Part shown: piece by piece, positions 56 through 40,479 of the stretch | Numbering within the stretch: the stretch's first letter is position 1 | Layout: the number at the start of each line of letters is the position of its first letter | From: an uncultured Oscillospiraceae bacterium | GTDB lineage: Bacteria > Bacillota > Clostridia > Oscillospirales > SIG519 | Length of the DNA: 52,571 nucleotides | Reading direction: 5' to 3' | Assembly (NCBI GenBank): GCA_964520885.1 | Contig: CAZFQD010000001.1 | Coordinates: 1 to 52,571 of the forward strand | Program-made: the position numbers and the translations under genes | The notes under the pieces: generated by a model | What the model was told of the DNA's origin: nothing | What the model saw: the letters and a program-made list of their open reading frames with translations, nothing else | The model's database searches: none

Positions 56-1924
56 ATGACATATACAGCAGAAGAATATGATATTGCAGTTATTGGAGCA
101 GGGCATGCAGGTATTGAAGCCGCCCTTTGTTGTGCACGGCTCAATCTAAAAACTATACTTTTTACCATTAACTTAGATGCAGTAGGCAATATGCCTTGCA
201 ATCCATCAATAGGCGGCACTGCTAAGGGGCATTTAGTTTTTGAAATAGATGCTTTGGGTGGGCAAATGGGCAAAGTGGCAGATAAAACTTTTATTCAATC
301 AAGAATGCTAAATAAAGGTAAAGGTCCTGCTGTTCACAGCCTTAGAGTTCAGTCGGACAGGAGAGCCTATCAAGTTCTTATGAAGCATATCATTGAATTG
401 CAAGAAAACCTTGATTTAAAGCAAGCGGAAATAATAGATATTGGTGTTAAAAATGGCAAAGTAACCTCGGTTACTACTCATATTGGAGCAGTTCATAAGG
501 CAAAAGCAGTAATTATTTGCTCCGGAACATATTTAAAAGGCAAAATAATTGTTGGCGATTATGCTTATAGTGGCGGACCTGATGGAATGTTTCCTGCAAA
601 TAGCCTTTCGGATAAATTAAAGGATTTGGATATTGAACTTTTAAGATTTAAAACAGGAACACCTGCAAGAGTTTTAAAAAGCAGTATTGACTTTTCTCAA
701 ATGGAGGAACAAAAGGGAGATGATATTATTGTCCCATTTTCATCTGATACTGAGAATTTAGGACAAAACAAGGTTTCTTGTTATCTAACATATACTAATT
801 TGCAAACTCATAAAATAATTAAAGATAATTTGCACCGCTCCCCACTTTTTGGTGGGAAAATTGAGGGTGTTGGACCACGATATTGCCCAAGTATTGAAGA
901 TAAGGTTGTTCGTTTTGCCGATAAGCAAAGGCATCAACTTTTTATAGAGCCTATGGGTTTAAACACTGAAGAAATGTATGTTCAAGGTATGTCCTCGTCC
1001 TTGCCTGAGGATGTTCAACTTTTAATGCTTCGCTCAATTAAAGGTTTGCAAAAAGTAAAAATTATGCGTAATGCCTATGCTATTGAATATGACTGCGTAA
1101 ATCCATTAGAGCTATTGCCAACTTTGGAATTTAAAAAAACCAAAGGGCTTTATGGTGCAGGGCAATTTAATGGCACAAGCGGATATGAAGAGGCGGCGGC
1201 ACAAGGCTTAGTTGCAGGAATAAATGCCTCATTAAAACTAAAAAACAAAGAGCCTCTAATTTTAGATAGAAGTAGTTCTTATATTGGTATGCTAATTGAT
1301 GATTTAGTTACAAAGGGAACAAATGAACCTTACAGAGTTATGACCTCACGAAGTGAATATCGCCTTATATTAAGGCAAGATAATGCCGACGCAAGGCTTA
1401 CTCCAAAGGGCTATGAAATAGGGCTAATTTCAAAAGAGAGATATGAAAAGTTTTTACAAAAGCAAAAGTTAATAGAAAATGAAATAAGCAGAGCCGAAAA
1501 AGAGAATATACCTCCGACAAAAAAGTTAAATGAAATATTAATTGACAATGAAACTCAGGAATTATCAACAGGGGCAAAACTTGCCGATTTAATAAGGCGA
1601 CCACAATTAAACTATGAAAAATTATCTGAGATAGATAAAAAAAGGCCAAATCTAAAAAGCGAAATTTTTGAGAGTGCAGAAATAGCAATAAAATATGAGG
1701 GCTATATAAAAAGACAACTAATTCAAATTGAACAATTCAAAAAAATTGAGCAAAGAGAATTGCCAAAGGAAATAGATTATTCAAAAATAAAAGGGCTAAG
1801 AATTGAGGCAGGACAAAAATTAAACAAAATCAAGCCTTTAAATTTAGGTCAAGCCTCACGAATTTCGGGAGTAAGCCCTGCCGATATTTCTGTTTTGCTT
1901 ATTTACTTAGAGCAGAATAAGTGA
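56..1924 (+). CDS. mnmG: tRNA uridine 5-carboxymethylaminomethyl modification enzyme MnmG (GidA)
   Basis: 622-aa ORF with an N-terminal FAD fold ([15 protein letters not shown]), the family-typical CNPSIGG.AKGHLV.EIDALGG block and a full-length C-terminal helical domain. Confidence 0.95.
1739..1924 (+). repeat. Direct repeat copy 1: intact last 62 codons of mnmG (partner 8006-8191)
   Basis: Hand alignment to 8006-8191: 186 nt, no indels, 19 mismatches. Confidence 0.85.
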
Positions 1925-1961
1925 TATAATTAAGATATATTTAGTTAAATGGGGGATGATT

Positions 1962-4900
1962 ATGAAAATTAATAAAAAACTAATAAAAATAGTGTCAATT
2001 AATTTACTTACCCTTGTTTTTATATTTAGCAATATTTTTGCATCCTTTGTTATTGTTTCAGGAGAACAGGTAACGGTTAATGAAGTTATAAATATGATTG
2101 ACCAATTGCCAAATACTTACTCAGGGTTGCCATTAGTAAATGGTGAAATAGATGAGATTACTTATTCAACAAATGCTTTGCCGTTTATAAAAGATACTTC
2201 TGTTGCTTTTGAGGGAATTAATCCAATTAAGATTACCTCTGAGTCTGGTGGCAGTGATGAAACTACTTTCGGCAAAACATTTGCCTCTTCGCAAGATTTA
2301 TCCGATTTAGATAATATTGAAATGTTGCTTTGGTTTTATGAACAAAATCCTGAATTATATTTAAGCAGTTTTAGAATTGACTTAGTAACATCAGCGGGTA
2401 ATTATTTTTATAAGTATGTTGATGGTTCATATTGGAAAAGATGCCCCGGTGCATCAAGAATAAGATATAATATATCAGAATTTAAGATATATGGAAATCC
2501 GGATTTATCTAATATCAATAGTTTTAACTTGCGGATAAAAGGCGTTGACTATATGGTTGAGAGTTTAGGGCTTTTTTCCGTAACCTACAATGCAAGGAGC
2601 ACCCCAAAAGTAATACTTACCTTTGATGACGGATGGCAAGATAATTATGATAATGCTTTTCCTATTTTAGAAGCACAAGGTTTTAAAGGGGTATCTTATG
2701 CTGTAAGTGATTTCGTTCAAGGAAACGACCCTAATTATATGAGAAAACCAACCCTTGACATTCTTTACAATGCAGGCTGGGATATATCAAATCACTCAAA
2801 GCACCATGAAAATTATAAGATAACCCCCGGAGCAAATGCGGAATATATGGGGACAAGCTACAAAACTTGTCTTGACTTTCTTTTAGATTGTGGCTATGAG
2901 AGAAGTGCAAGATATGTTTGTTATCCGGATGGTAGTTTTGATGATGAATTAATTCCATATTTAAAGGATATAGGTATAGTTTCTGCAAGAACCACAAGAA
3001 TTGGCTATAATGCAGAGCCTTATACTGATTTGTACAAATTAAAACAGTATACAATTGGAGCTGTCACAACCTTTGGAGTTGACAATTCTTCTAATGATAT
3101 TAAAGCCTGTATTGACCGTGCAATTGCTTCGGGGCAAACTATGTCAGTAATGATGCACCGAGTTTCGCTTGATAACCAAATGAATATCTCAGGAGATAGC
3201 ACTAATTCTATAAAAACATCTGTAACTATGTTAACTCAAGTTGTTCAATATTTAAAAGATACAGGTGTTAAAGTTTGCACAATGAGTGAGTGGTATGATG
3301 AGCTACCCTCTATAAAAACATTAACTCTTTTTGATAAATATGATGTATATAATGCAAAAACAGCATATGACCAACTATATTCAGAGCAAAAAGCATTAGT
3401 TACAAATTATAAAAACCTTACCGACGCTATAATTAAAATAGAACAGCTTCAAGGTGAAGCATTGCAACAAGTTATTGATGAAATTTTTGCTTTGCCTTTA
3501 GTAGAAAACTTAACATTAACTGATAAATCGGCGATTATTAAAACAAGACAATATTATGAATTGTTAACGCAACAACAAAAGGAATTAGTTACTAATTATT
3601 CTATTCTTGTTGATGCCGAACAAGCAATTTATTATCTTGAAATAAATACTATTATAGAAAAAATAGATTTTTTGCCAAGTGTAGAAAATTTAGTTCTTTC
3701 GGATAAAACAAGAATAGCATCAATAAGAGAAAATTATAACAATTTAACTACCGAGCAAAAATTACTTGTAACAAATTATGATAAGCTTACAAGTTTAGAA
3801 GCTAAAATATTAATTCTTGAGGATAATGCAGTTTTTGAAATAATTGATTTAATTTATGCTTTGCCGGACATTCAATATTTGGTTCTTGAAGACAGAGCAT
3901 TCGTAGAAGAAGCAAGGGCAAAATATAATATATTAGATGATATTTTAAAAGTTCGTATTAGCAATTACGAAACACTTCAAAAAGCAGAATTATCAATTGA
4001 TAATCTTTTAGCAGAGCAAGTTGTTGATAAAATTAACGCATTACCAATTAACAATTCAGGTATAACTTTAATAAATGGGAAATTAGATGATATTACTTAT
4101 TCAACTAACACCTCGCAAATTATTAAAGACACTTCAGTTAGTTTTGAAGGAGCTTACCCTATTAAAATTACATCAGAAAGCGGGTCAAATATAACTCCAA
4201 CTACATTTGGAAAAACATTTGAATTTTCAAAAGATTTATCAGATTTAACTAATATCGAAATGTTACTTTGGTTTTATGAACAAAATCCCGAATTATATTT
4301 AAGCAGTTTTAGAATTGACTTAGTAACATCAGCGGGCAATTATTTTTATAAGTATGTTGATGGTTCGTATTGGAAAAGATGTCCCGGTGCATCAAGAATA
4401 AGATATAATATTTCAGAATTTTTAACAGTTGGTTCTCCCGATTTGTCTAATATCAATAGTTTTAACATACGAATTAAAGGTGCTGAAGGTATGATTGAGA
4501 GTTTGGGGATTTTTTCAATAGACTACAATGCAAGTAGCTCTCCAAAGGTAATTTTAACATTTGATGACGGATGGCAAGATAATTATGATAATGCTTTTCC
4601 TATTTTAGAAGCACAAGGTTTTAAAGGGGTATCTTATGCTGTAAGTGATTTCGTTCAAGGAAACGACCCTAATTATATGAGAAAACCAACCCTTGACATT
4701 CTTTACAATGCAGGCTGGGATATATCAAATCACTCAAAGCACCATGAAAATTATAAGATAACCCCCGGAGCAAATGCGGAATATATGGGGACAAGCTACA
4801 AAACTTGTCTTGACTTTCTTTTAGATTGTGGCTATGAGAGAAGTGCACGATTTTTAAGTTATACCGATAGCAATTCAGATGACGAATTAATTCCATATTT

Positions 4901-6158
4901 AAAAGATATGGGAATTGTTTCGGCAAGAACAACAAGAATAGGATATAATACAGAGCCCCCGGTGGACTTATATAAATTAAAGCAGATTACAATTGGGGCT
5001 GATACAACCTTTGGAGTTGACAATTCTTCTAATGATATTAAAGCTTGTATTGACCTTGCTATAGCCTCAGGGCAAACGATGGCAATAATGATGCATCGAG
5101 TTTCGCTTGATAGCCAAATGAATGCACCCGATGATTCTTCAAATTCAATAAAAACCTCAGTAACTATGTTAACTCAAGTTGCACAGTATTTAAAAGATAT
5201 AGGTGTTGAAGTTTGCACAATGAGTGATTGGTATAATGAATTAGAAACTACTGAAAAATTAACTCTTGCAAATAAAACAGAAGTGTCAGATGCAAGAGCT
5301 TCATATAATCAATTATCGCAAAGCCAAAAGGAATTTGTAACAAATTATAAAACTCTTTTAGTTGCCGAAACTATACTTTCACAATTATCTAATGAAGCCT
5401 TGCCAAAAGTAATTGATGAAATTTCGGCATTGCCTTCATTAGAAAACTTAAAGATAGAGCATAAATTTGCAATAGAAAAGGCAAGACAAGATTATGAATT
5501 TTTACCGTCAGAACAAAAGCCACTTGTTACAAACTATTCTAAACTTTTAGGAATAGAAAGCAAGTTTGAACAGCTTAATAATGCAGTAAATATTATTATT
5601 GGGTATGCCGACAATAATAACGCAAATTCATTGACCATTTCACAGTTATCAGCGGTTGGGGTAACCAAAGCTTATGAAGAAAATTTGGCAGAATACAAAA
5701 CTGAAATAGAAAACTCAACAGAAATTTCAGTAAACACAATTTCAAAAATCCAAGCAATAATTGACACAGTAAATACTCCAATAATAACTATAAATTCTTA
5801 TATAACTACCCAAACAAATCAAAATATTATAGTTACAGCTTCAACCAGTAAAGGAATACTAAATTCTTATAGTTATACTTTTACTAAAAATGGAAGTTTT
5901 GAATTTATTGCTACTTATAAAAATGAATATATTGTTAAAAAAACTGTTACAATTACAAATATAATTATTAAGGGCGATGTAACAGGTGATGGAATTGTAA
6001 ATGCACTTGATTTATTACAGCTTAAAAAACATCTTTTAGGCCAAGTATCAATAACAGGCAGTAAGGCTTTAGCGGCAGATGTAACAGGTGATGGCAAAAT
6101 AAACGCACTTGATTTGTTAAAACTTAAAAAATATCTTTTAGGTCAAGTTCAATTATGA
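1962..6158 (+). CDS. Secreted multidomain protein: 2 x [beta-rich module + NodB/CE4 polysaccharide deacetylase], helical linker repeats, Ig-like module, C-terminal dockerin
   Basis: Start moved to ATG 1962 (GGGGG RBS at 1951-1955; hydrophobic N-terminus MKINKKLIKIVSINLLTLVFIF). Two copies of TFDDGWQDNYD...SNHSKHH (NodB motifs 1-2). Repeated ~57-aa helical units contain QK.LVTNY. The C-terminus carries two DVTGDG.(I/V)NALDLL.LKK.LLG calcium-loop segments. Confidence 0.8.
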   Translation: MKINKKLIKIVSINLLTLVFIFSNIFASFVIVSGEQVTVNEVINMIDQLPNTYSGLPLVNGEIDEITYSTNALPFIKDTSVAFEGINPIKITSESGGSDETTFGKTFASSQDLSDLDNIEMLLWFYEQNPELYLSSFRIDLVTSAGNYFYKYVDGSYWKRCPGASRIRYNISEFKIYGNPDLSNINSFNLRIKGVDYMVESLGLFSVTYNARSTPKVILTFDDGWQDNYDNAFPILEAQGFKGVSYAVSDFVQGNDPNYMRKPTLDILYNAGWDISNHSKHHENYKITPGANAEYMGTSYKTCLDFLLDCGYERSARYVCYPDGSFDDELIPYLKDIGIVSARTTRIGYNAEPYTDLYKLKQYTIGAVTTFGVDNSSNDIKACIDRAIASGQTMSVMMHRVSLDNQMNISGDSTNSIKTSVTMLTQVVQYLKDTGVKVCTMSEWYDELPSIKTLTLFDKYDVYNAKTAYDQLYSEQKALVTNYKNLTDAIIKIEQLQGEALQQVIDEIFALPLVENLTLTDKSAIIKTRQYYELLTQQQKELVTNYSILVDAEQAIYYLEINTIIEKIDFLPSVENLVLSDKTRIASIRENYNNLTTEQKLLVTNYDKLTSLEAKILILEDNAVFEIIDLIYALPDIQYLVLEDRAFVEEARAKYNILDDILKVRISNYETLQKAELSIDNLLAEQVVDKINALPINNSGITLINGKLDDITYSTNTSQIIKDTSVSFEGAYPIKITSESGSNITPTTFGKTFEFSKDLSDLTNIEMLLWFYEQNPELYLSSFRIDLVTSAGNYFYKYVDGSYWKRCPGASRIRYNISEFLTVGSPDLSNINSFNIRIKGAEGMIESLGIFSIDYNASSSPKVILTFDDGWQDNYDNAFPILEAQGFKGVSYAVSDFVQGNDPNYMRKPTLDILYNAGWDISNHSKHHENYKITPGANAEYMGTSYKTCLDFLLDCGYERSARFLSYTDSNSDDELIPYLKDMGIVSARTTRIGYNTEPPVDLYKLKQITIGADTTFGVDNSSNDIKACIDLAIASGQTMAIMMHRVSLDSQMNAPDDSSNSIKTSVTMLTQVAQYLKDIGVEVCTMSDWYNELETTEKLTLANKTEVSDARASYNQLSQSQKEFVTNYKTLLVAETILSQLSNEALPKVIDEISALPSLENLKIEHKFAIEKARQDYEFLPSEQKPLVTNYSKLLGIESKFEQLNNAVNIIIGYADNNNANSLTISQLSAVGVTKAYEENLAEYKTEIENSTEISVNTISKIQAIIDTVNTPIITINSYITTQTNQNIIVTASTSKGILNSYSYTFTKNGSFEFIATYKNEYIVKKTVTITNIIIKGDVTGDGIVNALDLLQLKKHLLGQVSITGSKALAADVTGDGKINALDLLKLKKYLLGQVQL
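2622..2909 (+). repeat. Intragenic duplicate block, copy 1 (100% identical to 4560-4847)
   Basis: Base-by-base comparison: 288 nt identical at a constant offset of 1938 nt. Flanking sequence of the duplicated module is only ~75-96% identical. Confidence 0.95.
4560..4847 (+). repeat. Intragenic duplicate block, copy 2 (100% identical to 2622-2909)
   Basis: Same comparison as for copy 1; the block lies in the second NodB module. Confidence 0.95.
5973..6155 (+). other. Dockerin module (two EF-hand-like segments) at the C-terminus of the deacetylase protein
   Basis: GDVTGDGIVNALDLLQLKKHLLG ... ADVTGDGKINALDLLKLKKYLLG, the canonical duplicated dockerin pattern. Confidence 0.75.
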
Positions 6159-6172
6159 TGGGAGTGAAAAAT

Positions 6173-7948
6173 ATGAAAAAATTTATCTCTTTATTAGTAT
6201 CACTTTTAGTCTTTGGTTCAACATTAATGTTACCATCCTTTGCAACCTCTAAAAGCACAGTTATTTCATTGGTTCCCACAAATACAACTGTTAGAATAGG
6301 CGATACTATTACAATTACAGGTAAATTTAATGGAAATGCAATGGTGGGAACATTTAATGTTTATGTAAAATACAATGTCACACAATTACAATATAAAAGT
6401 GTTGAGGGTATCTCACCTTCAATAAAAGCCGGCGAACTTGATGCTGTTAGTAGTAGTGGTAGCATACAACTTTTATACCTTGATGCTGATGGTGGCGAAA
6501 CGGGTATACTATCTGCAAATGCTTTTAAGTTAACTTTTAAAGTGGTTGGCGGAAATGTTGGAGATACTATTTCTGTAAATACACAAGTTGATACAGTAGG
6601 CGATGTAAACGTAACTGAAGTGGAAACATCGGTAGTTGCTGCTACAATGAAAATAGCCGCACCACTTTCAACAAATAATTATCTAAGTAGTTTAAGCATA
6701 GATAACGGCACTCTTTCACCTTACTTTAAAAAAAGTGTAACTACTTATAATGTTTCTGTGCCGTTTACTGTTTCAAAGTTAAATGTAAATGCAAAAGCCG
6801 AGGACACTAATTCAAAAGTTTCTATAAATAACCCAACTCTTACACCTAATTCAACCACAAATATTACTGTGTTAGTTACTGCTCAAAATGGTGCTAAAAA
6901 AACTTATACAATTAAGGTGGCAAGAGCCAAAGACCCTAATTATCAGCAAAGTAGCAATAATTATCTTTCAAGTATAACAGTTAATCTTAGTATGCTTTCT
7001 CCAATTTTTAATAAAGATGTAACAAGTTATGTAGTTTGGTTGCCATATGAAACGGATAATATTGTGGTTGCAGGCACTGCCGAAAACAACAAAAGCACAG
7101 TAAGTGTTATCGGTGGTAGCAACTTAGAAGCGGGTAAAGATAATACTATTACACTTGTTTGCACAGCAGAAAATGGGGATGTTAAAACATACACCATAAT
7201 TGCTAAAAGAGCGTCAGAAGATTTTAGCCAAACTCCAACGCCAACGGGAACTCCAACCTCTTTAGATATTGAAAAGATTAAAAATGAAATCTCAGTTGCA
7301 CAAAAATCTCAAGTTAGCAAGACAGTAAATGTTGATTTAAGTAATAGCGGTTCAAAACTACTTGACAATTTATTTTTTAACCAACTTTCAAGTAGTAAAG
7401 ATGTAATAGTAAATATAAATTTAGGTGGAGCAAAAATAGTATTTGAGGGCAAAGAAACAACAGTTCTATCAGAGCAAAAAACCTATGATTTTTCATATGT
7501 TAATAATAGCCAATATAAAGATATAATGATAAAAGATGTAGGTAGTGAAAACGATATATTTACATATTCATTTGCTTATCACGGAGACTTGCAAGGATTT
7601 GCAACATTTAATATTTACACTAATTTTGTTTCTGGCGATAAGGTTAATGTTTATAAGTATGATGCAGAAAAACCACAATATATTTTAATTGCCCAAAACA
7701 TAACTGTTGGCACAGGTGGTGTGGTTACATACATTAATAACTCTTGCTCAGATTATTTAATTACAAAAAATACAATTGCAAATGCTTTAAAATCCGATGT
7801 TATTGCAAAACAGGTTTTGCAAAACACAAGTGATGATTTTTTATTAAATATAGTAATATTTGCTGTAATATGTGTATTAATTTTAGCATTAGGTATTTTT
7901 ATTGGATATAATATTAAAGTCAATAGAACACAAAACAATATAATTTAA
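6173..7948 (+). CDS. Membrane-anchored cohesin-domain protein with two cadherin-like beta-sandwich repeats
   Basis: Start moved to ATG 6173 (GGGAG RBS 6160-6164; signal peptide MKKFISLLVSLLVFGSTLMLPSFA). aa ~35-170 show a cohesin-like pattern (RIGDTITITGKFNGNAMVGTFNVYVKYN..LQYKSV; FKLTFKVVGGNVGDTISV). Two NNYLSS(L/I)..G.LSP.F...VT.Y.V.(V/L)P ... KTYTI units follow. There is a TP-rich linker and one C-terminal TM helix (IVIFAVICVLILALGIFIGY). Confidence 0.65.
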   Translation: MKKFISLLVSLLVFGSTLMLPSFATSKSTVISLVPTNTTVRIGDTITITGKFNGNAMVGTFNVYVKYNVTQLQYKSVEGISPSIKAGELDAVSSSGSIQLLYLDADGGETGILSANAFKLTFKVVGGNVGDTISVNTQVDTVGDVNVTEVETSVVAATMKIAAPLSTNNYLSSLSIDNGTLSPYFKKSVTTYNVSVPFTVSKLNVNAKAEDTNSKVSINNPTLTPNSTTNITVLVTAQNGAKKTYTIKVARAKDPNYQQSSNNYLSSITVNLSMLSPIFNKDVTSYVVWLPYETDNIVVAGTAENNKSTVSVIGGSNLEAGKDNTITLVCTAENGDVKTYTIIAKRASEDFSQTPTPTGTPTSLDIEKIKNEISVAQKSQVSKTVNVDLSNSGSKLLDNLFFNQLSSSKDVIVNINLGGAKIVFEGKETTVLSEQKTYDFSYVNNSQYKDIMIKDVGSENDIFTYSFAYHGDLQGFATFNIYTNFVSGDKVNVYKYDAEKPQYILIAQNITVGTGGVVTYINNSCSDYLITKNTIANALKSDVIAKQVLQNTSDDFLLNIVIFAVICVLILALGIFIGYNIKVNRTQNNII

Positions 7949-8005
7949 TTGTTTTTATATTTTACCTTAGTTTTTCATATTCCCTCATTATTAAAAATAT
8001 ATTTT

Positions 8006-8191
8006 AAAAAAATTGAGCAAAGAGAATTATCAAAGGAAATAGATTATTCAAAAATCTAAGGGCTTAGAATTGAGGCAGGGCAAAAACTAAACAAAAAAAA
8101 GCCTTTAAATTTAGGTCAAGCCTCGCGAATTTCGGGAGTAAGCCCGACGGATATTTCGGTTTTGCTAATATATTTAGAGCAGAATAAATAA
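8006..8191 (+). pseudogene. mnmG: Displaced remnant of the mnmG 3' end (direct repeat copy 2)
   Basis: Collinear with 1739-1924 (167/186 nt identical). In-frame TAA at 8057-8059. No upstream gene body. Confidence 0.85.
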
Positions 8192-8360
8192 TGATATGAA
8201 TGTAATGAGGAATTAGGAATGAGAAATTTAGGTGACAAAATTTTTTTCTTTATTATGTTATTTTCTTATATCTTTTAGGCTAAGGGTGAATGGTTAAAGT
8301 TTAATGACAAAAATGTTATTCTACAACTAAATTGTCATTGCGAGTGTAACGAAGCAATCT
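8192..8360 (+). repeat. Composite intergenic repeat: heptamer array + conserved core + palindrome
   Basis: Heptamer units GAATGTA/ATGAGGA/ATTAGGA/ATGAGAA (8198-8232). Core ATTTAGGTGACAAAATTTTTTTCTTTAT (8226-8253). Palindromic GTCATTGCGAGTGTAACGAAGCAATC (8334-8359), which recurs at 24572-24597. Confidence 0.6.
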
Positions 8361-8448: not shown

Positions 8449-8517
8449 ATAAAAGTTAAAGAATAAAAGGAGGGCAGAATAGAACTTTAACTTAAAATTA
8501 AATAATAGAATATTTAA

Positions 8518-8672
8518 AGCGCCAGAACCGAAATTTTTTATCGGTTGACGAGGAAAGGGATTATCGAAATTATCGGCGGATACCCTTCGGCTATTTGCGT
8601 AATGGTCGTTAGGCTTTTTGTAAAAATTATGGGTAACCATAAAACAAAGCAAAAGCCAATACTACGCAATTT
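8518..8672 (+). ncRNA. glmS ribozyme: glmS ribozyme (GlcN6P-dependent self-cleaving riboswitch)
   Basis: Conserved core strings in order: A|GCGCCAGAAC, CCGA..TCGG hairpin, GGTTGACGAGGA, TATCGAAATTATCGGCGGATACCC, and closing helix TTGCGTA...TACGCAA. It lies immediately 5' of glmS. Confidence 0.85.
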
Positions 8673-12503: not shown

Positions 12504-12540
12504 AACCATAAACTTTTTTATTTCATATATTATTATTAAT

Positions 12541-12641
12541 AACTGAGCAGGCGATGAGTTTAATTACTCGTGGGGCTGGGCCTTTAAGGGCAACAGGAAT
12601 ATACCTGTGGGACAGAAATGTGTTTCACAAGGTATTTTTTT
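12541..12641 (+). promoter_or_regulatory. Structured 5' leader with intrinsic terminator (candidate metal riboswitch or attenuator)
   Basis: G-rich blocks GTGGGGCTGGGCC, GGGCAACAGG and TGGGACAG. Terminator ATACCTGTG...CACAAGGTAT plus T-run (12601-12641). Its 5' arm can instead pair with ACAGG at 12593-12597. Confidence 0.4.
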
Positions 12642-24493: not shown

Positions 24494-24500
24494 ATTAATA

Positions 24501-24597
24501 TAGAATGTAGAATGTAGAATTTCGGTGTCAAAGCCATTTTCTTTATTTGAATTTTGCATATTGTTAAATTTGTCATTGCGAGTGAAACGAAGCAATC
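24501..24597 (+). repeat. Composite repeat: (TAGAATG)x3 + core + palindrome
   Basis: Core TTTCGGTGTCAAAGCCATTTTCTTTAT (24520-24546). GTCATTGCGAGTGAAACGAAGCAATC (24572-24597). Confidence 0.6.
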
Positions 24598-27109: not shown

Positions 27110-27472
27110 ATTGTTGAGAACAATATAAATATTATTGCAAATTACAAGGAATACATAAAGGTTATAAATTATTGCATAATGCCAAATCACATTCATTTGT
27201 TGTTGGCAATTTGTAGGGAACGCATTGTATGCGTTCCGAATGAAAACCGAACCAAAATGGAAATTTCAAAAATAATACAGCAATTTAAAGCATCAGTTTC
27301 AAAACAATGTAGTGCAATCAATAATAACGGAACGCATACAATGCGTTCCCTACAATGGCAAAAATCATATTATGACCACATAATCAGAAACAAAAAAGAC
27401 TATAAAGAAATTTATGAATACATAGAAAATAACCCTTTAAAATGGGAAAACGATAAATATTATTGCAAGTAA
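27110..27472 (+). pseudogene. 5'-truncated RAYT/IS200-like (Y1 HUH) transposase remnant with embedded palindromes
   Basis: The in-frame stretch ..YKEYIKVINYCIMPNHIHLLL (HUH motif) opens only after TGA 27107. The C-terminus is WQKSYYDHIIRNKKDYKEIYEYIENNPLKWENDKY. Perfect hairpins GGAACGCATTGTATGCGTTCC (27216-27236) and its reverse complement (27328-27348) lie inside the reading frame. Confidence 0.65.
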
Positions 27473-27481
27473 ATATTAATT

Positions 27482-27539
27482 AAAGAAAATAGTTTTGATA
27501 CCATAATTGTTAATTGTTCCTTGTTAATTGTTCATTGCA
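27482..27539 (-). repeat. Core (inverted) + heptamer array upstream of yggS
   Basis: AAAGAAAATAGTTTTGATACCAT is the reverse complement of the core. (AATTGTT/CCTTGTT)x5 at 27505-27539. Confidence 0.6.
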
Positions 27540-29039: not shown

Positions 29040-29150
29040 GTATAAAAAATTAGTAATTATGAATTAGGAATAAAAGTATGGCTTTGTCACTTGATATTAA
29101 TTTAAGTCAACTTTGGCACACATTAATTATACAATGCAAAAAAAAATAAA

Positions 29151-29963: not shown

Positions 29964-32753
29964 ATGCCACAGGATTACAATCAAACTTTAAACCTGCCAA
30001 AAACGGATTTTCCAATGAGGGCAGGTTTGCCACAAAGAGAGCCGGAATTATTAAATAAATGGTCGCAAGAAAAATTATATGAAAATATTTTAAAGCAAAA
30101 CAATGAAAAGCCACTTTACATTTTGCATGATGGACCGCCTTATGCTAATGGCGACATTCATATAGGACACGCATTAAATAAAGTTTTAAAGGACATTGTT
30201 GTTAGATATAAAAATATGTCAGGTTTTAAGGCTCCTTATGTTCCCGGCTGGGATACTCATGGCTTGCCTATTGAACTTCAAGCTATAAAAAGCTTAGGAA
30301 TAAATAGAGCAAATACTGATGTATTGGAGTTTAGAAAGCATTGCAAGGATTTTGCATTAAAATATGTAGCAAATCAAAAAGAACAATTTAAAAGGCTCGG
30401 TGTAATTGGCGATTGGGATAATCCCTATTTAACTTTACAACCTGAATTTGAAACAAAGCAAATAGAAATTTTCGGTGAAATGGCTAAAAAAGGGTATATT
30501 TATAAGGGCTTAAAGCCTGTTTATTGGTGCCCCCACGATGAAACTGCTCTTGCAGAAGCAGAAATAGAATATGCTGAAGATACAAATAATTCTGTATTTG
30601 TAAAGTTTAAAGTAACAGATGATAAAGGCAAATTGACTGCTTTAACTAATGAAAAGTGCGACAATATGTATTTTGTTATTTGGACTACTACAATATGGAC
30701 TTTGCCGGGCAATGTTGCTATTTGTGTTGGACCTAAATATAAATACTCTCTTGTTAAATGTAATAATGAAATTTTAATATTAGCAAACGAATTAATAAAA
30801 AGTGTAATGAAAGCCACAAACATTGATGATTATAAGGTTTTAGCCGAAATAAACGGAAAAGACCTTGAATTAATGAGTACACAACATCCTTTTTTAGACA
30901 AGCAATCACTTGTTATAGTTGGTGACCATGTAACTTTAGAAGCTGGAACAGGTTGTGTTCACACAGCACCGGGACACGGTGTGGATGACTTTATTGTTTG
31001 CCAAAATTATAAACAACTAAAAATAGTAGTCCCCGTTGATAATAAAGGGGTTATGATTGCTGATGCCGGAAAGTTTGCTGGGCTTTATTATAAAAAAGCA
31101 AACAAGGCAATTTTTGAAGATTTGCAGGAAACAAATGCACTTTTAGCAACAGAAACAATAATTCACCAATACCCTCATTGTTGGAGATGTAAAAGCCCGA
31201 TTTTGTTTAGAGCGACGGAACAATGGTTTTGTTCAGTAGAAGATTTTAAAGAGCAAGCTATAAAGGCTTGTCATAGTGCCAAATGGGTTCCTGCTTGGGG
31301 CGAGGATAGAATTGTAAGTATGATTAAGGATAGAAATGATTGGTGCATTTCAAGGCAAAGAGTTTGGGGCGTTCCAATTCCTGTTTTCTATTGCAAAAAA
31401 TGCGGAAAATATATTATTAATGATGAAACTATTAATGCCGTATCAGAAAAATTTAGATTAGAAGGCTCTGATGCTTGGTATAAATATAGTGCAAAAGAAC
31501 TTTTGCCAAATGGTATTTCTTGTGAATGTGGGCATACTGAATTTAGAAAAGAAACTGATATTATGGATGTTTGGTTTGATAGTGGCTCCTCTCATAAAGC
31601 AGTGCTTGAAACAAGAGAGGGTTTAACAAGCCCTGCTGATATGTATTTAGAAGGGAATGACCAATATAGAGGTTGGTTTCAGTCCTCTTTGTTGACTTCG
31701 GTAGCAACAAGCGGAATTGCTCCTTATAAAACAGTTTTAACTCATGGCTTTGTAGTGGATAAAGAAGGTAAAAAAATGTCCAAATCACAAGGCAATGTTA
31801 TTAGTCCACTTGATATAATAAAAGAATATGGGGCAGATATTTTAAGGCTTTGGGTGGCAAGTTCTGATTATACTGTGGATGTGAGGATTTCAAATGATAT
31901 TTTAAAGCAGTTATCTGAGGTTTACAGAAAAATAAGAAACACCGCAAGATTTATTTTAGGAAATATTAATGATTTTAATCCAGATAATGATATGGTGGAA
32001 TATTCAAAAATGCCAGAACTTGATAAATGGGCATTAATCAAACTTAATGCCTTAATTGAAAAGGTTAACAAAGCATATAACGAGTATGAATACCACACTG
32101 TTTATCACTCTATTCACAATTTTTGCGTTGTTGATATGTCGAATTTTTATCTTGATATAATAAAGGATAGGTTATATTGCGAAAACGCCTCTTCGGTTGA
32201 TAGAAGAACTGCTCAAACGGTAATGTATATTATACTTGATGCGTTGGTTAAAATACTCTCGCCCGTGCTTTGCTTTTCTGCTGAGGAAATTTGGCAGTTT
32301 ATGCCTCATACAAGTGATGTAAAAAAACAAAGTATTTCCTTTAACCAAATCCCAAAGATTAATACTCTATATGTAGATAATATAATTTCAGAGCAATTTG
32401 ATAAACTCTTAGAAATAAGAGAGGATGTTAAAAAAGTTCTTGAAATAGCAAGAACAGCAAAAACAATTGGCTCTTCGCTTGAAGCGAAATTGGTTATTTA
32501 TTGCAATCAAGAAAAATACGATTTTCTAAACGGAATTGAAGACTTTTTAACAACCGCCTTTATTACCTCACAAGTGCAACTTGTAAAGGGAGAAAACAAG
32601 GACGCATTTATAGGCGAGTATAGTGGAATTGCTGTTGAAGTTAAAAAAGCCGACGGCTTAAAATGTGAACGATGCTGGGTATTTAGCACAACGGTAGGGC
32701 AAAGCGAAAAGCACCCGACGCTTTGTGAAAGATGTACAAAAGTAGTCGGTTAG
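29964..32753 (+). CDS. ileS: Isoleucine--tRNA ligase
   Basis: HIGH motif (PYANGDIHIGHALNK), KMSKS motif (GKKMSKSQGN) and a C-terminal zinc-finger CERCW...CERC. Confidence 0.95.
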   Translation: MPQDYNQTLNLPKTDFPMRAGLPQREPELLNKWSQEKLYENILKQNNEKPLYILHDGPPYANGDIHIGHALNKVLKDIVVRYKNMSGFKAPYVPGWDTHGLPIELQAIKSLGINRANTDVLEFRKHCKDFALKYVANQKEQFKRLGVIGDWDNPYLTLQPEFETKQIEIFGEMAKKGYIYKGLKPVYWCPHDETALAEAEIEYAEDTNNSVFVKFKVTDDKGKLTALTNEKCDNMYFVIWTTTIWTLPGNVAICVGPKYKYSLVKCNNEILILANELIKSVMKATNIDDYKVLAEINGKDLELMSTQHPFLDKQSLVIVGDHVTLEAGTGCVHTAPGHGVDDFIVCQNYKQLKIVVPVDNKGVMIADAGKFAGLYYKKANKAIFEDLQETNALLATETIIHQYPHCWRCKSPILFRATEQWFCSVEDFKEQAIKACHSAKWVPAWGEDRIVSMIKDRNDWCISRQRVWGVPIPVFYCKKCGKYIINDETINAVSEKFRLEGSDAWYKYSAKELLPNGISCECGHTEFRKETDIMDVWFDSGSSHKAVLETREGLTSPADMYLEGNDQYRGWFQSSLLTSVATSGIAPYKTVLTHGFVVDKEGKKMSKSQGNVISPLDIIKEYGADILRLWVASSDYTVDVRISNDILKQLSEVYRKIRNTARFILGNINDFNPDNDMVEYSKMPELDKWALIKLNALIEKVNKAYNEYEYHTVYHSIHNFCVVDMSNFYLDIIKDRLYCENASSVDRRTAQTVMYIILDALVKILSPVLCFSAEEIWQFMPHTSDVKKQSISFNQIPKINTLYVDNIISEQFDKLLEIREDVKKVLEIARTAKTIGSSLEAKLVIYCNQEKYDFLNGIEDFLTTAFITSQVQLVKGENKDAFIGEYSGIAVEVKKADGLKCERCWVFSTTVGQSEKHPTLCERCTKVVG

Positions 32754-32802
32754 GAGTTAGTAATGAAATGATAAATGACAATTGTTTAAAGGAGATGAAG
32801 AA

Positions 32803-33069
32803 ATGCCTGAACTTTGCAGATTTGAAGGTATGATAATTAAACTTATTTTTGGCGATAATGTTCAACATAACAAGCCACATATACATGTTTATTTTGCAGA
32901 ATTTGAAGCTTCAGTTGGAATAGATGGTGAACTATTATCAGGTTCATTACCGGTAAAAAAACTAACAATTTTACAGGCTTGGATGATATTACACGAAGAT
33001 GAACTTTATAAAGCTTGGAATAAAGCAGTAAGAAACGAGCCTTTTGGTAAAATTGAGCCTTTAAGATAG
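32803..33069 (+). CDS. DUF4160 family protein
   Basis: Start at ATG 32803 after an AAGGAG RBS. MPELCRFEGMIIKLIFGDNVQHNKPHIHVYF is the family-typical N-terminus. Confidence 0.75.
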   Translation: MPELCRFEGMIIKLIFGDNVQHNKPHIHVYFAEFEASVGIDGELLSGSLPVKKLTILQAWMILHEDELYKAWNKAVRNEPFGKIEPLR

Positions 33070-33081
33070 GAGGTATTCAAC

Positions 33082-33381
33082 ATGTATATTATTGACGGTA
33101 TTGCTTATGCAGGTGAGCCAAAGCCCCCCATAATTGTTAAGGCGGCTCGCTCACTTGACGACTATAAATTATGGATTCGTTTTGCAAATAATGAGGAAAA
33201 AATATTTAATTTTACACCTCTTTTAAATTATCCCTGTTATACTCCTTTAAAAGATAAATCCGTGTTTGATAAAGTGTATATAGATTTTGGTTGTCCAGTT
33301 TGGAACAATGGAGAAATTGATATTGCTCCGGAATTACTTTATAAAGATGGAATGCCAACAGGAGAAAATACCAATTCTTAA
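33082..33381 (+). CDS. DUF2442 family protein
   Basis: 99 aa. LWIRFANNEEKIFNF..LL and W.NGEIDIAPELLY are typical of DUF2442. A GGAGG RBS is present and the gene lies 12 nt after the DUF4160 gene. Confidence 0.75.
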   Translation: MYIIDGIAYAGEPKPPIIVKAARSLDDYKLWIRFANNEEKIFNFTPLLNYPCYTPLKDKSVFDKVYIDFGCPVWNNGEIDIAPELLYKDGMPTGENTNS

Positions 33382-33398
33382 TTGGCACATAATTCTTC

Positions 33399-33472
33399 AG
33401 CATAACAGTAGGGCAAAGCGAAAAGCACCCGACGCTTTGTGAAAGATGTGCAAAAGTAGTTGGTTAGGAGTT
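33399..33472 (+). pseudogene. ileS: Displaced copy of the ileS 3' end (partner 32685-32758)
   Basis: 74 nt with 4 mismatches and no indels. Includes the TAG stop and the first heptamer unit. Confidence 0.85.
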
Positions 33473-33505
33473 GGGAATTAGGATTTAGGAATTAAGAATA
33501 AAATT
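33464..33505 (+). repeat. Heptamer array (TTAGGAG/TTGGGAA/TTAGGAT/TTAGGAA/TTAAGAA)
   Basis: Six consecutive 7-nt units read directly from the sequence. Confidence 0.55.
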
Positions 33506-33536
33506 AGATTTTATAAGTTACAAAAATTATAACAAT

Positions 33537-33573
33537 AAAAATCTCACTTTCAATTTTGAAGGTGAGATTTTTA
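33537..33573. terminator. Bidirectional terminator between the ileS region and the convergent beta-propeller gene
   Basis: 10-bp stem AAAATCTCAC/GTGAGATTTT with A/T runs on both sides. Confidence 0.6.
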
Positions 33574-36762: not shown

Positions 36763-36823
36763 TTTTGCTTAATCAATACTCAACCACTCTTAACTCCTCG
36801 TTCCTAATTCCTAACTGTTATTA

Positions 36824-36889
36824 ATCAATTAACTAAAACCCCATTATCATTTTGCAGTAAAATCAATATATCCTCTTCATTGCCATTTT
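36824..36889 (-). pseudogene. ypeB: Displaced copy of the ypeB 3' end (partner 39129-39194)
   Basis: 66 nt with a single mismatch, which is synonymous (GGA/GGC) in the ypeB frame. Same orientation as the intact copy. Confidence 0.85.
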
Positions 36890-37065
36890 CCTCATATTAT
36901 GAGCTATACTTAATACTAATTCTCCATTAAAATATAGAAAATATTTTAATACGAAAGGGTAAACTTTCAAAACATTTTGTAAAAATGTTTGAGAATGAAA
37001 AGACATGGAAAGACAGGGTTCAGTCTAAACGGTCCCTTATGTTCGCTGTAATATTATAAACTATA

Positions 37066-38781
37066 TTAGCTAATTGTTTGTATTCCCAAAAGATGTTTTT
37101 TTATCGCAATTAAATCGCTTATAGAAATATTCCCGTTGTCATAAATATCTCCGGCAATTTTATTAATACCATTCAAAAAATTTATTCCCAACAAGTGGTT
37201 TTTAACAGCTGCTAAGTCCAAAATATCAATAATATTATCCCCATTAGTATCACCCAATTTATAAATATTTGCTATTGTAACAGTTTTATTTGTTACATTT
37301 CCGGCATCATCGGTTGCCACAAATTCAAAGATACCGTTTTCAGCAAAAGTATGAGTTGGAGCATTTAATGAACCTTCATTTGTTGAGGCAGTTACTGTAA
37401 TATTTTTATTTGTTGGAGTTGTATTATAATCTGCAAGTGTTATCATAGGTGCCACCTTATCAATATTATTTATTGTTACTGTTATTGTTATAACATTGCC
37501 CACATCATCTGTTGCCACAAAATCAAAGCTGCCATTTTCAGTAAATGTATGGCTTGTTTCATTTAATGTACCTTCATTAGCCGCAGCTGTAACAGTAACA
37601 TTTTGATTTGTCGGAGTGTTAACATAACTATTTATTGTAATACTCACTGAAGGTATTACTACGAACTGTATATTTTTACTTGCTGCAAATGTCTTAGCAT
37701 ATGAATTGTCAGCCCCATATATAACTACTTTTGTGCTACCGAAAAATGCATTTGGTGCAATACTTGTTACACTATTAGGAATTGCAATTTTAATTAAATT
37801 AGCACAACTGCTAAATGTATCGCTACTTATACTTGTTACACTATTGGGAATGGTTATTGTTGTTATGCCGGAGCATAGGTAAAATGCTCCATCTCCTATA
37901 CTTGTTACACTATTTGGAATTGTTATTGATGTTATACCACAACTACTAAATGTATTATTTCCAATACTTGTCACACTATTGGGAATGGTTATTGATTTTA
38001 AACTAATACATTGATAAAAAGCAAACTCTCCCAAAATTGTTACACTATTTGGAATGATATAGCAAGTTGTTGTTTTCCCTGCAGGGTATTGAATAATTAT
38101 TGTCTTATCTTTGTTAAACAATACTCCGTCGGTGCTTGAATAAAATAAATTATTTGAGTCCACATTAATTGAGGTTAAGACGGGAGAAAAATAAAATGCT
38201 TGTTTTCCTATACTTGAAACACTACTTGAAATATCTACTGTTGTTAATTTTAAACAACCAGAAAACGCATAATCTCCAATGATTGTTACACTATTTGGAA
38301 TTGTTATTGATGTTAAACTACTGCAAGATGAAAATGCATAATTACTGATATTTGTTACACTATTTGGTATTATTATTGAGGTTAATTTTCTGCATCCATA
38401 AAATGCATAGATCCGAATATTTTTTACGCTATTTCCTATTGTTATTGAAGTTATTCCACTACATTGTAAAAATGCATAGTTATTTATATTTATTACACTA
38501 TCCGGAATTATTACTGAGGTGATACTGGTTTTATTTTCAAACGCATTATATCCAATTTCAGTTACCGGTTTCCCTGCAATTGTATCAGGTATAGTAACCG
38601 CACCACCGGTTCCCGTATAACCTGTAATTCTAACATTAGCACCATTATCAATTAACGCATAATTAAAATTCCCACTTGATAATGCAAACGATGGCAATGC
38701 CAAACTCGACACCAAAGAAATCGCCAAAAGTAATGTTAATAAAACCGATACTGCTTTTTTAATAATATTCACTTTTTTCAT
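37066..38781 (-). CDS. Secreted BspA-type leucine-rich-repeat protein with two Ig-like modules and C-terminal dockerin
   Basis: Signal peptide. About 12 repeats of IPNSVT.I...AF..C..LTSITI. Two TN(Q/K)N(V/I)TVTA...HTF.ENG.F.FVATDD.GN modules. Dockerin GDTNGDNIIDILDLAAVKNHLLG...GDIYDNGNISISDLIAIKKHLLG. Confidence 0.8.
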   Translation of the reverse strand: MKKVNIIKKAVSVLLTLLLAISLVSSLALPSFALSSGNFNYALIDNGANVRITGYTGTGGAVTIPDTIAGKPVTEIGYNAFENKTSITSVIIPDSVININNYAFLQCSGITSITIGNSVKNIRIYAFYGCRKLTSIIIPNSVTNISNYAFSSCSSLTSITIPNSVTIIGDYAFSGCLKLTTVDISSSVSSIGKQAFYFSPVLTSINVDSNNLFYSSTDGVLFNKDKTIIIQYPAGKTTTCYIIPNSVTILGEFAFYQCISLKSITIPNSVTSIGNNTFSSCGITSITIPNSVTSIGDGAFYLCSGITTITIPNSVTSISSDTFSSCANLIKIAIPNSVTSIAPNAFFGSTKVVIYGADNSYAKTFAASKNIQFVVIPSVSITINSYVNTPTNQNVTVTAAANEGTLNETSHTFTENGSFDFVATDDVGNVITITVTINNIDKVAPMITLADYNTTPTNKNITVTASTNEGSLNAPTHTFAENGIFEFVATDDAGNVTNKTVTIANIYKLGDTNGDNIIDILDLAAVKNHLLGINFLNGINKIAGDIYDNGNISISDLIAIKKHLLGIQTIS

Positions 38782-39028
38782 TTTGTCCCCTCCAAATTGT
38801 GTTTAATTAAGTGTAATTTTTTTCTAATTAAGTAGTATTATATTGTATTTATATTAATATTTCAATATATATATAACATTTTACTGCCAAAGGGATGCAC
38901 CAAAGGGACGGAGTTTTGACAATCATATATATTATGCTAATTTAACATCTAAATATTACATACATAATAGCATATTGAAAACTATTTTGTCAATCACAAA
39001 TTTTTTTGTTTTTTATTCAAAAGTTGAG

Positions 39029-39058
39029 CAAAAAAATGGACGAATTTACTCGTCCATT
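39029..39058 (-). terminator. Minus-strand terminator just downstream of ypeB (inside the inserted segment)
   Basis: ATGGACGA/TCGTCCAT stem. On the minus strand a T-run follows it (complement of A-run 39031-39036). Confidence 0.7.
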
Positions 39059-39129
39059 TCTCATTTGTGCAAACAATTTTTTTGTACAAACTTCCCATTT
39101 TTAATATAATTATGCATTATTTTCTTTTA

Positions 39130-40479
39130 TCAATTAACTAAAACCCCATTATCATTTTGCAGTAAAATCAATATATCCTCTTCATTTCCATTTTTTGCGT
39201 TTATATATATTAACATATTTTTATCGTCAATAGTTTTACATTTAAATTCATAGCAAAGTCGTTCAACTTTTCCCGGAGTTGGTATAATACATAGCTCACT
39301 TCCTTCAATTTTTAAAGAAGGGCTAACTTTTTTTTCTGCTTGTGCTTTGGTTAAAATTGGAGTTACATCTCTATTTGTAGTATGATTCATTAAATATCCA
39401 TTTGCTTCAAAACTCATAATTTTACCATCATTTAAAGAAACACCCACCTTAATTAAATCGGGATAACATATTGCATTATCTAATACATAAGCGAAATTAA
39501 TTGTTAAAATATTATTGCCTTCATAATAATAGCTTTCTTTCATATTTTTATAATTCTTGCTAATTAAAAACCCTTGTGCTTTCTTAATTGCTTGCTCAAA
39601 ACTAATATTTTTAGCGGTAATAGCAGCACTATTTAACATACTATAAACAAATCCGCCCTGCCGAGTAATTTCAATTGAAACAGTTCCACTATTAAACGAA
39701 AAGGTGGGAATTAAACCATTAGTTTCGCCTACATAAACGATATTTTCAATATTTACATTTAAAAATTCCGCCGCCTTTTTTTTAGCATTTACATTAGAAA
39801 ATTGAGGTTGATTTTTTAGCATTGTAGGGGATAAGTTTTCTAAATGCTCGCTAAATGGTCCATCATAAATTAATTTTGGGTAACTTGCAATATCCTCTTC
39901 AATTTTAGCCATTTCACTTGTTAAACTTATGGCATTCTCATTGCCGTTTTTTTCAGTGTTTTTAATTAAATTTAATAGTTCATTATTTTTTAGATTTCCA
40001 TTTTGCACCTCGCTTTGCAAGAAACTAATTTGTGTTGCTAAAATTGTGGCTTCATCCGAAAGGTTTTTCAAAGTTTCTCTATCTTGTTCGTTAATTACTC
40101 CACCCTCTAAAACTTTCCTCGATAAAGAATTCACATACTCACCTGTTTGAGATAAAAATTTTGCTGTTCCCATTAAATTAGAAGCATAAAAAGGCAATGC
40201 CGAAATGCTTTCCTTTGCAGCACTGGTTGTTTTCCAAATTTGACTTGCCAAACCCACTAACTGCAATGAAGAATTTGCATATAGGCCCTTTTGCAAAGTG
40301 GCATCAATAGTATTCATATATTCCGATAATTGTGCAAATGAGCCTTGATAGGTATAGCTAATATATCGTCTGTAAATTGAAGATTGAACAAAAAAGGTAA
40401 GTGCAAAACCAGCTATAACTGCCATTAAGGATACAGTATAGCTTATTATTCTAATTAATTGTCTTCTTGTTAAATGCAT
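39130..40479 (-). CDS. ypeB: Spore germination protein YpeB (PepSY-domain)
   Basis: 449 aa. N-terminal TM anchor, the YpeB-type N-domain (SFAQLSEYMNTIDATLQKGLYANS) and C-terminal PepSY repeats. Confidence 0.8.
   Translation of the reverse strand: MHLTRRQLIRIISYTVSLMAVIAGFALTFFVQSSIYRRYISYTYQGSFAQLSEYMNTIDATLQKGLYANSSLQLVGLASQIWKTTSAAKESISALPFYASNLMGTAKFLSQTGEYVNSLSRKVLEGGVINEQDRETLKNLSDEATILATQISFLQSEVQNGNLKNNELLNLIKNTEKNGNENAISLTSEMAKIEEDIASYPKLIYDGPFSEHLENLSPTMLKNQPQFSNVNAKKKAAEFLNVNIENIVYVGETNGLIPTFSFNSGTVSIEITRQGGFVYSMLNSAAITAKNISFEQAIKKAQGFLISKNYKNMKESYYYEGNNILTINFAYVLDNAICYPDLIKVGVSLNDGKIMSFEANGYLMNHTTNRDVTPILTKAQAEKKVSPSLKIEGSELCIIPTPGKVERLCYEFKCKTIDDKNMLIYINAKNGNEEDILILLQNDNGVLVN

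Follow-up and report, generated by a model that had tools for sequence, protein, structure and literature searches.

Three gene segments bounded by duplicated 3′ ends of mnmG, ileS and ypeB in the genome of an uncultured Clostridia lineage

Contig CAZFQD010000001.1 (assembly GCA_964520885.1), the whole of which is referred to here as the window, is a 52.6-kb metagenome contig with a GC content of 31%. Its source is an uncultured, spore-forming, low-GC Clostridia lineage that carries dockerins on its secreted proteins. A repeat search of the window revealed three direct repeat pairs, which enclose 6.1, 0.64 and 2.2 kb of DNA (cargo a, b and c). Each repeat corresponds to the 3′ terminus of mnmG, ileS or ypeB, and the upstream member of the pair is the true end of that gene; at all three loci the genes between the copies are co-oriented with the gene whose end is duplicated. 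MnmG (GidA) and YpeB were identified by Pfam and IleS by precomputed Pfam matches. The nearest MnmG and the nearest YpeB among 5.8 billion proteins are 81 and 62% identical, respectively, and a scan of GTDB for YpeB found no relative. The footprint itself, an insert bounded by a duplicated gene end and a displaced pseudo-end, is already known; here it occurs three times in 40 kb, which is unusually dense, and without any mobile-element gene. The three loci are composed as follows.

56..1924, plus strand: intact mnmG (gidA; Pfam GIDA, GIDA_C_1st, SAM_GIDA_C)
1736-1925, plus strand: mnmG repeat copy 1, the last 186 nt and the stop codon (repeat family D4)
1956..7948, plus strand: cargo a, two genes (Pfam; no PHROG match; host-like codon usage)
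1956-6158, plus strand: cargo a gene 1, a 1400-aa polysaccharide deacetylase with dockerin (Pfam)
6155-7948, plus strand: cargo a gene 2, a 597-aa cadherin-like protein (Pfam)
8003..8192, plus strand: displaced mnmG 3′ end, a pseudogene fragment 89% identical to copy 1 (repeat search, codon comparison)
8204..8227, plus strand: heptamer array AATGAGG/AATTAGG after the displaced mnmG end

29964..32753, plus strand: intact ileS (precomputed Pfam tRNA-synt_1, Anticodon_1, zf-FPG_IleRS)
32682-32764, plus strand: ileS repeat copy 1, the last 69 nt, the stop codon and about 11 nt (repeat family D9)
32782..33381, plus strand: cargo b, a DUF4160/DUF2442 gene pair (Pfam; phrog_14333, phrog_37898)
32803-33069, plus strand: DUF4160 gene (Pfam)
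33082-33381, plus strand: DUF2442 gene (Pfam)
33396..33478, plus strand: displaced ileS 3′ end, 92% identical to copy 1
33464..33499, plus strand: heptamer array TTAGGAA after the displaced ileS end
33536-33573: terminator-like hairpin 3′ of this array

39130..40479, minus strand: intact ypeB (Pfam YPEB_N, YPEB_PepSY1-2)
39126-39194, minus strand: ypeB repeat copy 1, the last 62 nt, the stop codon and about 4 nt (repeat family D10)
36890..39125, minus strand: cargo c (Pfam; sequence features)
39034-39059, minus strand: terminator-like hairpin of cargo c
38993-38964, minus strand: promoter-like site of cargo c
37066-38781, minus strand: cargo c gene, a 571-aa BspA-type leucine-rich repeat (LRR) protein with dockerin (Pfam)
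36821..36889, minus strand: displaced ypeB 3′ end, 97% identical to copy 1
36775..36820, minus strand: heptamer array of the TTAGGAA type after the displaced ypeB end
36759-36727, minus strand: terminator 3′ of this array

The mnmG pair (1736-1925 and 8003-8192) spans 190 nt at 89% identity, the ileS pair (32682-32764 and 33396-33478) 83 nt at 92% and the ypeB pair (39126-39194 and 36821-36889) 69 nt at 97%, with BLAST E-values of 9e-62, 2e-28 and 9e-31, respectively. At all three loci the stop codon and the following 1-11 nt mark the limit of homology. Cargo a begins 31 nt past the mnmG stop codon, with only a ribosome-binding site between them, and the displaced mnmG copy, which carries an in-frame stop codon in addition to its own TAA stop, starts 54 nt beyond the end of this cargo. 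The genes of cargo b are preceded by a short AATGAnA heptamer run, and 14 nt separate the end of this cargo from the displaced ileS copy; cargo c closes with a 175-nt tail past the LRR gene. An earlier interpretation made from the letters alone (hereafter the sequence-only reading) had described this architecture of intact end, co-oriented cargo, displaced end and array flank in threefold occurrence, and all three pairs lie where it had placed them. Its 74-nt ileS core with four mismatches and its 66-nt ypeB core with one synonymous mismatch are both contained in the longer repeats measured here, and homology ends within a few nucleotides of the stop codon, as it had claimed.

Every displaced copy has a purine-rich heptamer array on its 3′ side (8204-8227, 33464-33499 and, on the minus strand, 36775-36820), whereas in mnmG, ileS and ypeB the intact end is without the normal array and the cargo adjoins it directly. 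Intact ylbF, mutL and yggT are laid out like the displaced ends, with heptamer arrays 4-26 nt past their stop codons, in agreement with the earlier suggestion that the array after a displaced copy looks like a native flank.

The pattern exceeds what chance would give. When the terminal 250 nt of 36 genes, at the 3′ and at the 5′ end, were queried against the window, a second copy was found for 3/36 gene 3′ ends and for 0/36 5′ ends. A near-identical script, applied as a control to the last 200 nt of each open reading frame in about 1 Mb of other loci taken from a GTDB scan for (TAGAATG)3, recovered the three cases and elsewhere found essentially only tandem paralogs. It is hardly credible that the structures are an assembly artefact, that is, that a chimeric metagenome contig joins strain variants. 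The window is indeed a metagenome contig, a 1.9-kb internal repeat in the first cargo gene breaks other assemblies, and the displaced mnmG copy is supported by the window contig only; other assemblies support the mnmG-to-cargo junction, and it is because their contigs stop inside the first cargo gene that the displaced mnmG end is known from a single contig. However, both the ileS and the ypeB structure, with identical repeats, are present in the independent assemblies ERZ27248920 and ERZ27248965, and shorter contigs in ERZ27248885 and JGI 3300028161 carry parts of them. Since the ileS and ypeB repeats are shorter than the k of 141 given in the ENA contig labels and their copies differ in sequence, they cannot be graph collapses. 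In addition, short Logan contigs terminate exactly within the ypeB copy that is displaced, which is the behaviour expected of a true repeat.

How the copies differ bears on their origin. The pairs were compared codon by codon using Nei-Gojobori counts, which give the numbers of synonymous and non-synonymous differences (Sd and Nd) and the corresponding proportions (pS and pN): Sd 14.5, Nd 4.5, pS 0.366 and pN 0.031 for mnmG; Sd 3, Nd 2, pS 0.198 and pN 0.037 for ileS; and Sd 1, Nd 0, pS 0.083 and pN 0 for ypeB. One way to produce such pairs would be duplication in place, either as a long target-site duplication at a staggered cut or by replication template switching that copies the cargo from another place in the genome and re-enters 66-186 nt upstream, so that the copies are identical at the start and diverge later. 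Cargo composition indistinguishable from that of the host would suit this explanation, and the arrays could stall replication forks right at the left junction. If the intact copy had then been under selection and the displaced copy neutral, about 65% of the differences should be non-synonymous, but this model of in-place duplication and neutral decay is rejected with P = 1.2e-4 for mnmG and P = 3.4e-5 for the pooled pairs. The ypeB pair, with 1-2 differences, is too similar for this test and in that respect leaves the model some room; terminal inverted repeats and a transposase, on the other hand, are absent. In-place duplication is thus very unlikely as a general explanation, and for the mnmG case the synonymous excess removes both long target-site duplication and local template switching. 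A transposon of the DDE/insertion sequence (IS) type with target-site duplication was rejected for the same divergence and for its missing terminal inverted repeats and transposase. A diversity-generating retroelement was also rejected, there being no reverse transcriptase domain and no adenine bias in the mismatches, which are of all types and run in both directions.

The synonymous excess indicates that most of the divergence accrued while both copies were coding, i.e., in two lineages. The few non-synonymous changes, among them the in-frame stop of the displaced mnmG copy, are consistent with later neutral decay of about 3%. Because the copies differ mostly at silent positions, the cargo probably arrived by recombination, accompanied by a foreign version of the gene end, and judging from these codon patterns it is most likely that each cargo came in together with a diverged allele of the end that it now follows. 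A compositional polarity between the two mnmG copies was sought in GC at third codon positions (GC3) and in CpG, and no clear signal was found.

What process would bring in genes together with a copy of the end of their new neighbor? The explanation that we favour, tentatively, is that the three cargoes were imported independently and that in each case homologous recombination within the conserved 3′ end of a housekeeping gene provided the anchor. The DNA entering the cell would come from a related lineage that has other genes directly after mnmG, ileS or ypeB, and would bring the donor version of the gene end along with its neighboring genes. If this DNA were circular, one Campbell-type crossover with the resident gene end would suffice, and the homology arm would necessarily be duplicated on both sides of the insert. 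If it were linear, homology-facilitated illegitimate recombination (HFIR) could integrate it, with the resident stop codon 66-186 nt downstream of the second joint. The outcome would be a functional gene end, donor-derived or hybrid, followed by the imported genes and then by the displaced end, presumably the resident one, with its array and terminator, decaying as a pseudogene fragment. Short 3′-end duplications alone would be expected to survive, as they keep the gene intact and their repeats are too short and too diverged for quick removal by recombination.

Several observations point to this explanation. Each repeat is the own end of the gene that it follows, in three different genes, which a homology-driven process predicts without invoking three site-specific enzymes. 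The displaced copies keep the genome-typical layout of stop codon, array and terminator while the intact copies abut the cargo, so that the displaced end and its flank fit the older local gene end. Cargo a and cargo b begin 30-50 nt past the stop codon and have nothing but a ribosome-binding site in front of them, as genes that came next in a donor operon would. The GC content, GC3 and codon usage of the cargo match those of host genes, with no foreign composition, which points to a closely related donor. The gene order near ypeB and mnmG differs in the nearest sampled relatives, making donors with other neighbors at these sites plausible. The inserts are bounded by direct duplications of the target-homologous segment and have no other end features, as Campbell-type insertions would be. 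This is in line with the proposal in the sequence-only reading of a single crossover with circular DNA carrying a gene-end arm: it fits all the tests made here, and the mostly synonymous divergence of the arms, which argues that each arm came from another lineage's functional gene, supports it, even though the mechanism stays an inferred one.

Precedents exist for both routes. Insertion-duplication of the Campbell type resembles the present cases in that the flanking direct duplication is the homology arm, experimental arms measuring about 100-950 bp (PMC3240628), and that no element-encoded enzyme is needed; it differs in being known mainly from plasmids and laboratory constructs, and the present arms are short and diverged. 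When circular DNA recombined by single crossovers in Escherichia coli, the homologous locus was duplicated over 109-950 bp, and these events far outnumbered true HFIR, which moreover usually deletes recipient DNA rather than duplicating it (PMC3240628). For the orphan modules of type VI secretion systems (T6SS) and Rhs, displacement of the HFIR type has been proposed (PMC5361080). Those cases, and modules for contact-dependent inhibition (CDI), share with ours the upstream conserved anchor, the new DNA and the old 3′ part pushed downstream as an orphan (PMC5361080), but they are polymorphic toxin loci in which orphan immunity genes are selected, whereas the displaced housekeeping ends here are useless. 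That recombination between short repeats is active in the population is evident from a strain polymorphism: a contig of ERZ27248920 (19425-19436) lacks 1620 nt of the window (45443-47062), and the deletion falls between two 11-nt direct repeats (GAACAGCAAAT). It first appeared as a 1.6-kb insertion relative to ERZ27248920 and was rejected as a fourth case since it is actually this deletion, which takes out a Fer4_20/Pyr_redox_2 oxidoreductase gene and the start of an acyl-CoA dehydrogenase gene. The hallmark of HFIR is one homologous joint combined with one illegitimate joint that has 3-10 bp of microhomology.

A further possibility is site-specific integration, in which each cargo is, or once was, a small integrative element whose attachment site (attP) includes the target gene 3′ end and whose tyrosine integrase is encoded elsewhere or has since been lost; the restored gene would then be attL, made by the copy on the element, and the displaced native end attR. 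The architecture is identical to that of icd, e14 and icdC in E. coli, where the copies also differ mainly synonymously (PMC13626634), and a synonymous bias is what one would expect of a gene end that is carried by an element and takes up its function once integrated. There is no homology requirement to satisfy, DUF4160/DUF2442 pairs occur in phages according to their PHROG matches, and elements that keep attL and attR after losing their integration genes are known as cis-mobilizable elements (CIMEs; PMC5704250). Direct repeats that include the target gene end do lie at both borders of each cargo, but neither an integrase nor an autonomous partner with the same att specificity was found in the cargo, in about 62 kb of this genome or among viral contigs. 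By Pfam and PHROGs, no integrase or integrase fragment is present in any cargo or in these 62 kb, in which no tyrosine or serine recombinase was found either; that the cargo encodes no recombinase had been stated by the sequence-only reading, and no Pfam or PHROGs match contradicts it. None of the three repeat cores has an exact match in 2.9 million viral contigs. Cargo a and cargo b are wall-to-wall coding with margins of 14-54 nt, which leaves no room for lost genes, three target genes would demand three specificities, and the cargo genes, which share the codon usage of the host, encode ordinary surface proteins with dockerins. Gene-end repeats flank none of about 40 metagenome loci with DUF2442 relatives. 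Site-specific integration is therefore rather unlikely.

Two of the closest known systems are of this type. In icd, e14 or phage 21 supplies the end that completes the gene, and beyond the insert is the native C-terminal fragment that it displaced, as here (PMC13626634). The e14 element, however, is a 15-kb prophage with its own integrase and site-specific excision, whereas the present inserts of 0.64-6.1 kb look non-mobile, have no integrase and affect three genes within 40 kb. CIMEs reside at 3′ ends of genes in Firmicutes in the context of ICESt1/ICESt3 and derive from decayed integrative and conjugative or integrative and mobilizable elements (ICEs/IMEs) that share att sites with an autonomous partner; for the cargoes no partner, decay remnants or shared att sequence was found. 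An integron gene cassette was rejected as well, as the window contains no integrase and the cargo ends have no shared palindromic site.

Among the DUF4160/DUF2442 loci two matches to the duplicated-end pattern were rejected, one being a duplicated promoter-like sequence and the other a GC-rich repeat. On an unrelated JGI contig (L160), a DUF4160/DUF2442 cassette with a helix-turn-helix (HTH) gene lies between copies of a 53-nt promoter-like sequence with 94% identity (3074-3126 and 4230-4282), which resembles an insertion with a duplicated 5′ regulatory region, not a gene end.

The heptamer arrays and the transposase relics of the window raise another possibility. Arrays lie at 8204-8227, 18655-18686, 18815-18846, 24497-24520, 29048-29071, 33464-33499 and, on the minus strand, 36775-36820, and further ones at 19584-19631, 22640-22679 and 27504-27537, as well as in loci L006 and L008. 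Purine-rich units (GAATTAG, TAGAATG, TAATGAA) are found right after stop codons and units of the reverse-complement type (TCAACTT, AATTTTC, TAATTGT) right before start codons, so that genes or operons are flanked by inverted arrays. The same layout is present at higher density in a related metagenome-assembled genome (MnmG 77%). Exact (TAGAATG)3 arrays occur in more than 120 GTDB genome stretches from many phyla, with carriers including Bacteroidota, the cyanobacteria Moorena and Symploca, Peribacteria, Ignavibacteria and Clostridia; thus, the heptamer array is far more widespread than this lineage. A search for literature on heptanucleotide arrays in Firmicutes found none. The only recombinase-like genes of the window are two Y1 (IS200-like) transposase fragments, both outside the cargo, which are accompanied by recurrent short sequences:

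18690-18711, 18846-18867, 24524-24545 and 27481-27502 (the last on the minus strand): 22-nt end motif GGTATCAAAACTATTTTCTTTA, four copies against 0 expected
18918-18940 and 22314-22336: perfect hairpin AACGGAACGGTCAAGACCGYTCC
22264-22536 and 27179-27472: Y1_Tnp gene fragments (Pfam)

From their sequences, the motif GGTATCAAAACTATTTTCTTTA, the hairpin AACGGAACGGTCAAGACCGYTCC and the Y1_Tnp fragments look like decayed Y1 elements similar to IS200 or to REP-associated tyrosine transposases (RAYT; REP, repetitive extragenic palindrome). These relics lie directly 3′ of the stop codons of mutS and an HlyD-like gene and are bounded by inverted heptamer arrays; together with the arrays they may represent a REP/RAYT-like system whose repeats include the arrays. 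REP-like hairpins (GTCATTGCGAGTGAAACGAAGCAATC) are also found at about 8335 and about 24570, and a diverged copy of the 22-nt motif (GGTGACAAAATTTTTTTCTTTA) lies 3′ of the 8204-8227 array.

The cargo could accordingly be the product of a dedicated cassette-insertion process tied to the post-stop arrays, perhaps with Y1 (IS200/RAYT-like) transposases acting in trans. The left junctions all lie 1-11 nt past the stop codon, where an array usually starts, the right junctions all lie shortly past cargo stop codons, and arrays flank genes in a relative too. The Y1_Tnp fragments, with their conserved end motifs, likewise adjoin stop codons, those of mutS and the HlyD-like gene, and are enclosed by inverted arrays. 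Yet the end motif and the hairpin are confined to 18.7-19.0, 22.3, 24.5 and 27.5 kb and are found at no cargo border, a distribution for which an IS200/IS605 or RAYT-type (Y1 HUH) element, whose gene fragments moreover lie outside the cargo, was rejected. Terminal inverted repeats and IS ends were sought at the cargo and not found; inverted heptamers around the displaced copies are significant for ileS only (P about 0.009) and inconsistent across the three. HUH transposition would leave the gene-specific duplication of a diverged allele unexplained, and no comparable cases were found in 43 kb of the array-rich relative or in about 1 Mb of array-containing genomes. An array- or Y1-linked mechanism is suggested by the junction positions only, and we consider it improbable. 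Much the same applies to a homology-addressed cassette system in this array-rich lineage, in which compact or promoterless cassettes are placed immediately after the stop codon of conserved genes, a short copy of the target gene end serving as a programmable "address" without any element-encoded recombinase, and with array-associated Y1/HUH enzymes, or others, possibly as the trans-acting factor. If true, such a dedicated mechanism would direct gene cassettes to chosen sites in a manner that is new. For the suggestion in the sequence-only reading of an in-trans recombinase targeting gene 3′ ends, no positive evidence was found: no tyrosine or serine recombinase is encoded in about 62 kb, the three junctions share no motif, inverted repeat or palindromic site, and the Y1 relics border no cargo.

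Homology-anchored import has difficulties of its own, which weigh against it as follows. Exact-protein look-ups (YpeB, MnmG, HTH, LRR, DUF2442) gave the same arrangement in every sample, and the sampled assemblies all carry whichever cargoes their contigs reach. Since among them neither a donor lineage, an empty site nor a circular form was found, the mechanism is an inference, and so are its direction (which copy is the resident one), the circular or linear state of the donor DNA and a role for RecA. The nearest relatives (YpeB 62 and 52%; MnmG 81 and 77%) have other gene neighbors and are uninformative on the insertion sites, and so many repeat proteins matched the LRR cargo protein that the search for its homologues gave nothing of use. 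With a length of 66-190 nt and an original identity of roughly 93%, the arms are poor RecA substrates. The right-hand cargo borders all lie in non-coding DNA, 14-175 nt past a stop codon; about 10% of the genome is non-coding, so that random illegitimate joints would rarely fall there three times. The left borders all lie at the very start of the array position, which hints at some site preference beyond plain homologous recombination. A natural origin of circles consisting of a gene end plus its neighbors is not established. Finally, the polarity is deduced only from the arrays, and the import may instead comprise the displaced end and its flank. What the sequence-only reading had called a recurrent signature stands as far as the architecture is concerned. 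The phrase suggests one dedicated mechanism, but the events differ in pS (0.37, 0.20 and 0.08) and in cargo type, and the three could be independent products of ordinary recombination.

Other features of the window can be noted briefly. The deacetylase-dockerin gene of cargo a contains an internal 1938-nt tandem duplication (2083-3608 and 4018-5546, 71-87% identity) with two deacetylase modules; this region, which interrupts other assemblies, is the most variable between samples (99.3% versus 99.98% elsewhere). The mnmG gene lies outside its usual origin-region context, which in relatives is mnmE-mnmG-rsmG-noc-parA-parB: here a tRNA and a flavodoxin-like gene are upstream, and downstream, past cargo a, is glmS with its ribozyme (8507-8667), 3′ of the displaced mnmG end, the array and the copy of the 22-nt motif. 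A perfect 90-nt repeat, whose copies are 259 nt apart, is located just upstream of mnmG (locus L002, 9500-9960). Arrays of short hairpin modules, with units such as TCATTAAGCAAAGCGATT and GTGTGATATAC, occupy two intergenic regions, 45447-45660 and the same part of L002 (9500-9960), and a NiCo riboswitch (12533-12617) precedes a P-type ATPase gene.

If import anchored by gene-end homology is indeed what happened, these loci would be the natural footprint of gene gain without mobile-element machinery, a conserved gene end serving as the anchor. The displaced end would then be a datable fossil: its non-synonymous decay would tell how old the event is, and the synonymous excess how distant the donor was. 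Three such fossils in 40 kb suggest that the process is frequent in this lineage, and it may be one reason why gene order is poorly conserved among the relatives of this genome. By a simple screen of whole genomes for displaced 3′ ends, the extent of homology-anchored gene import could be measured in uncultured bacteria.

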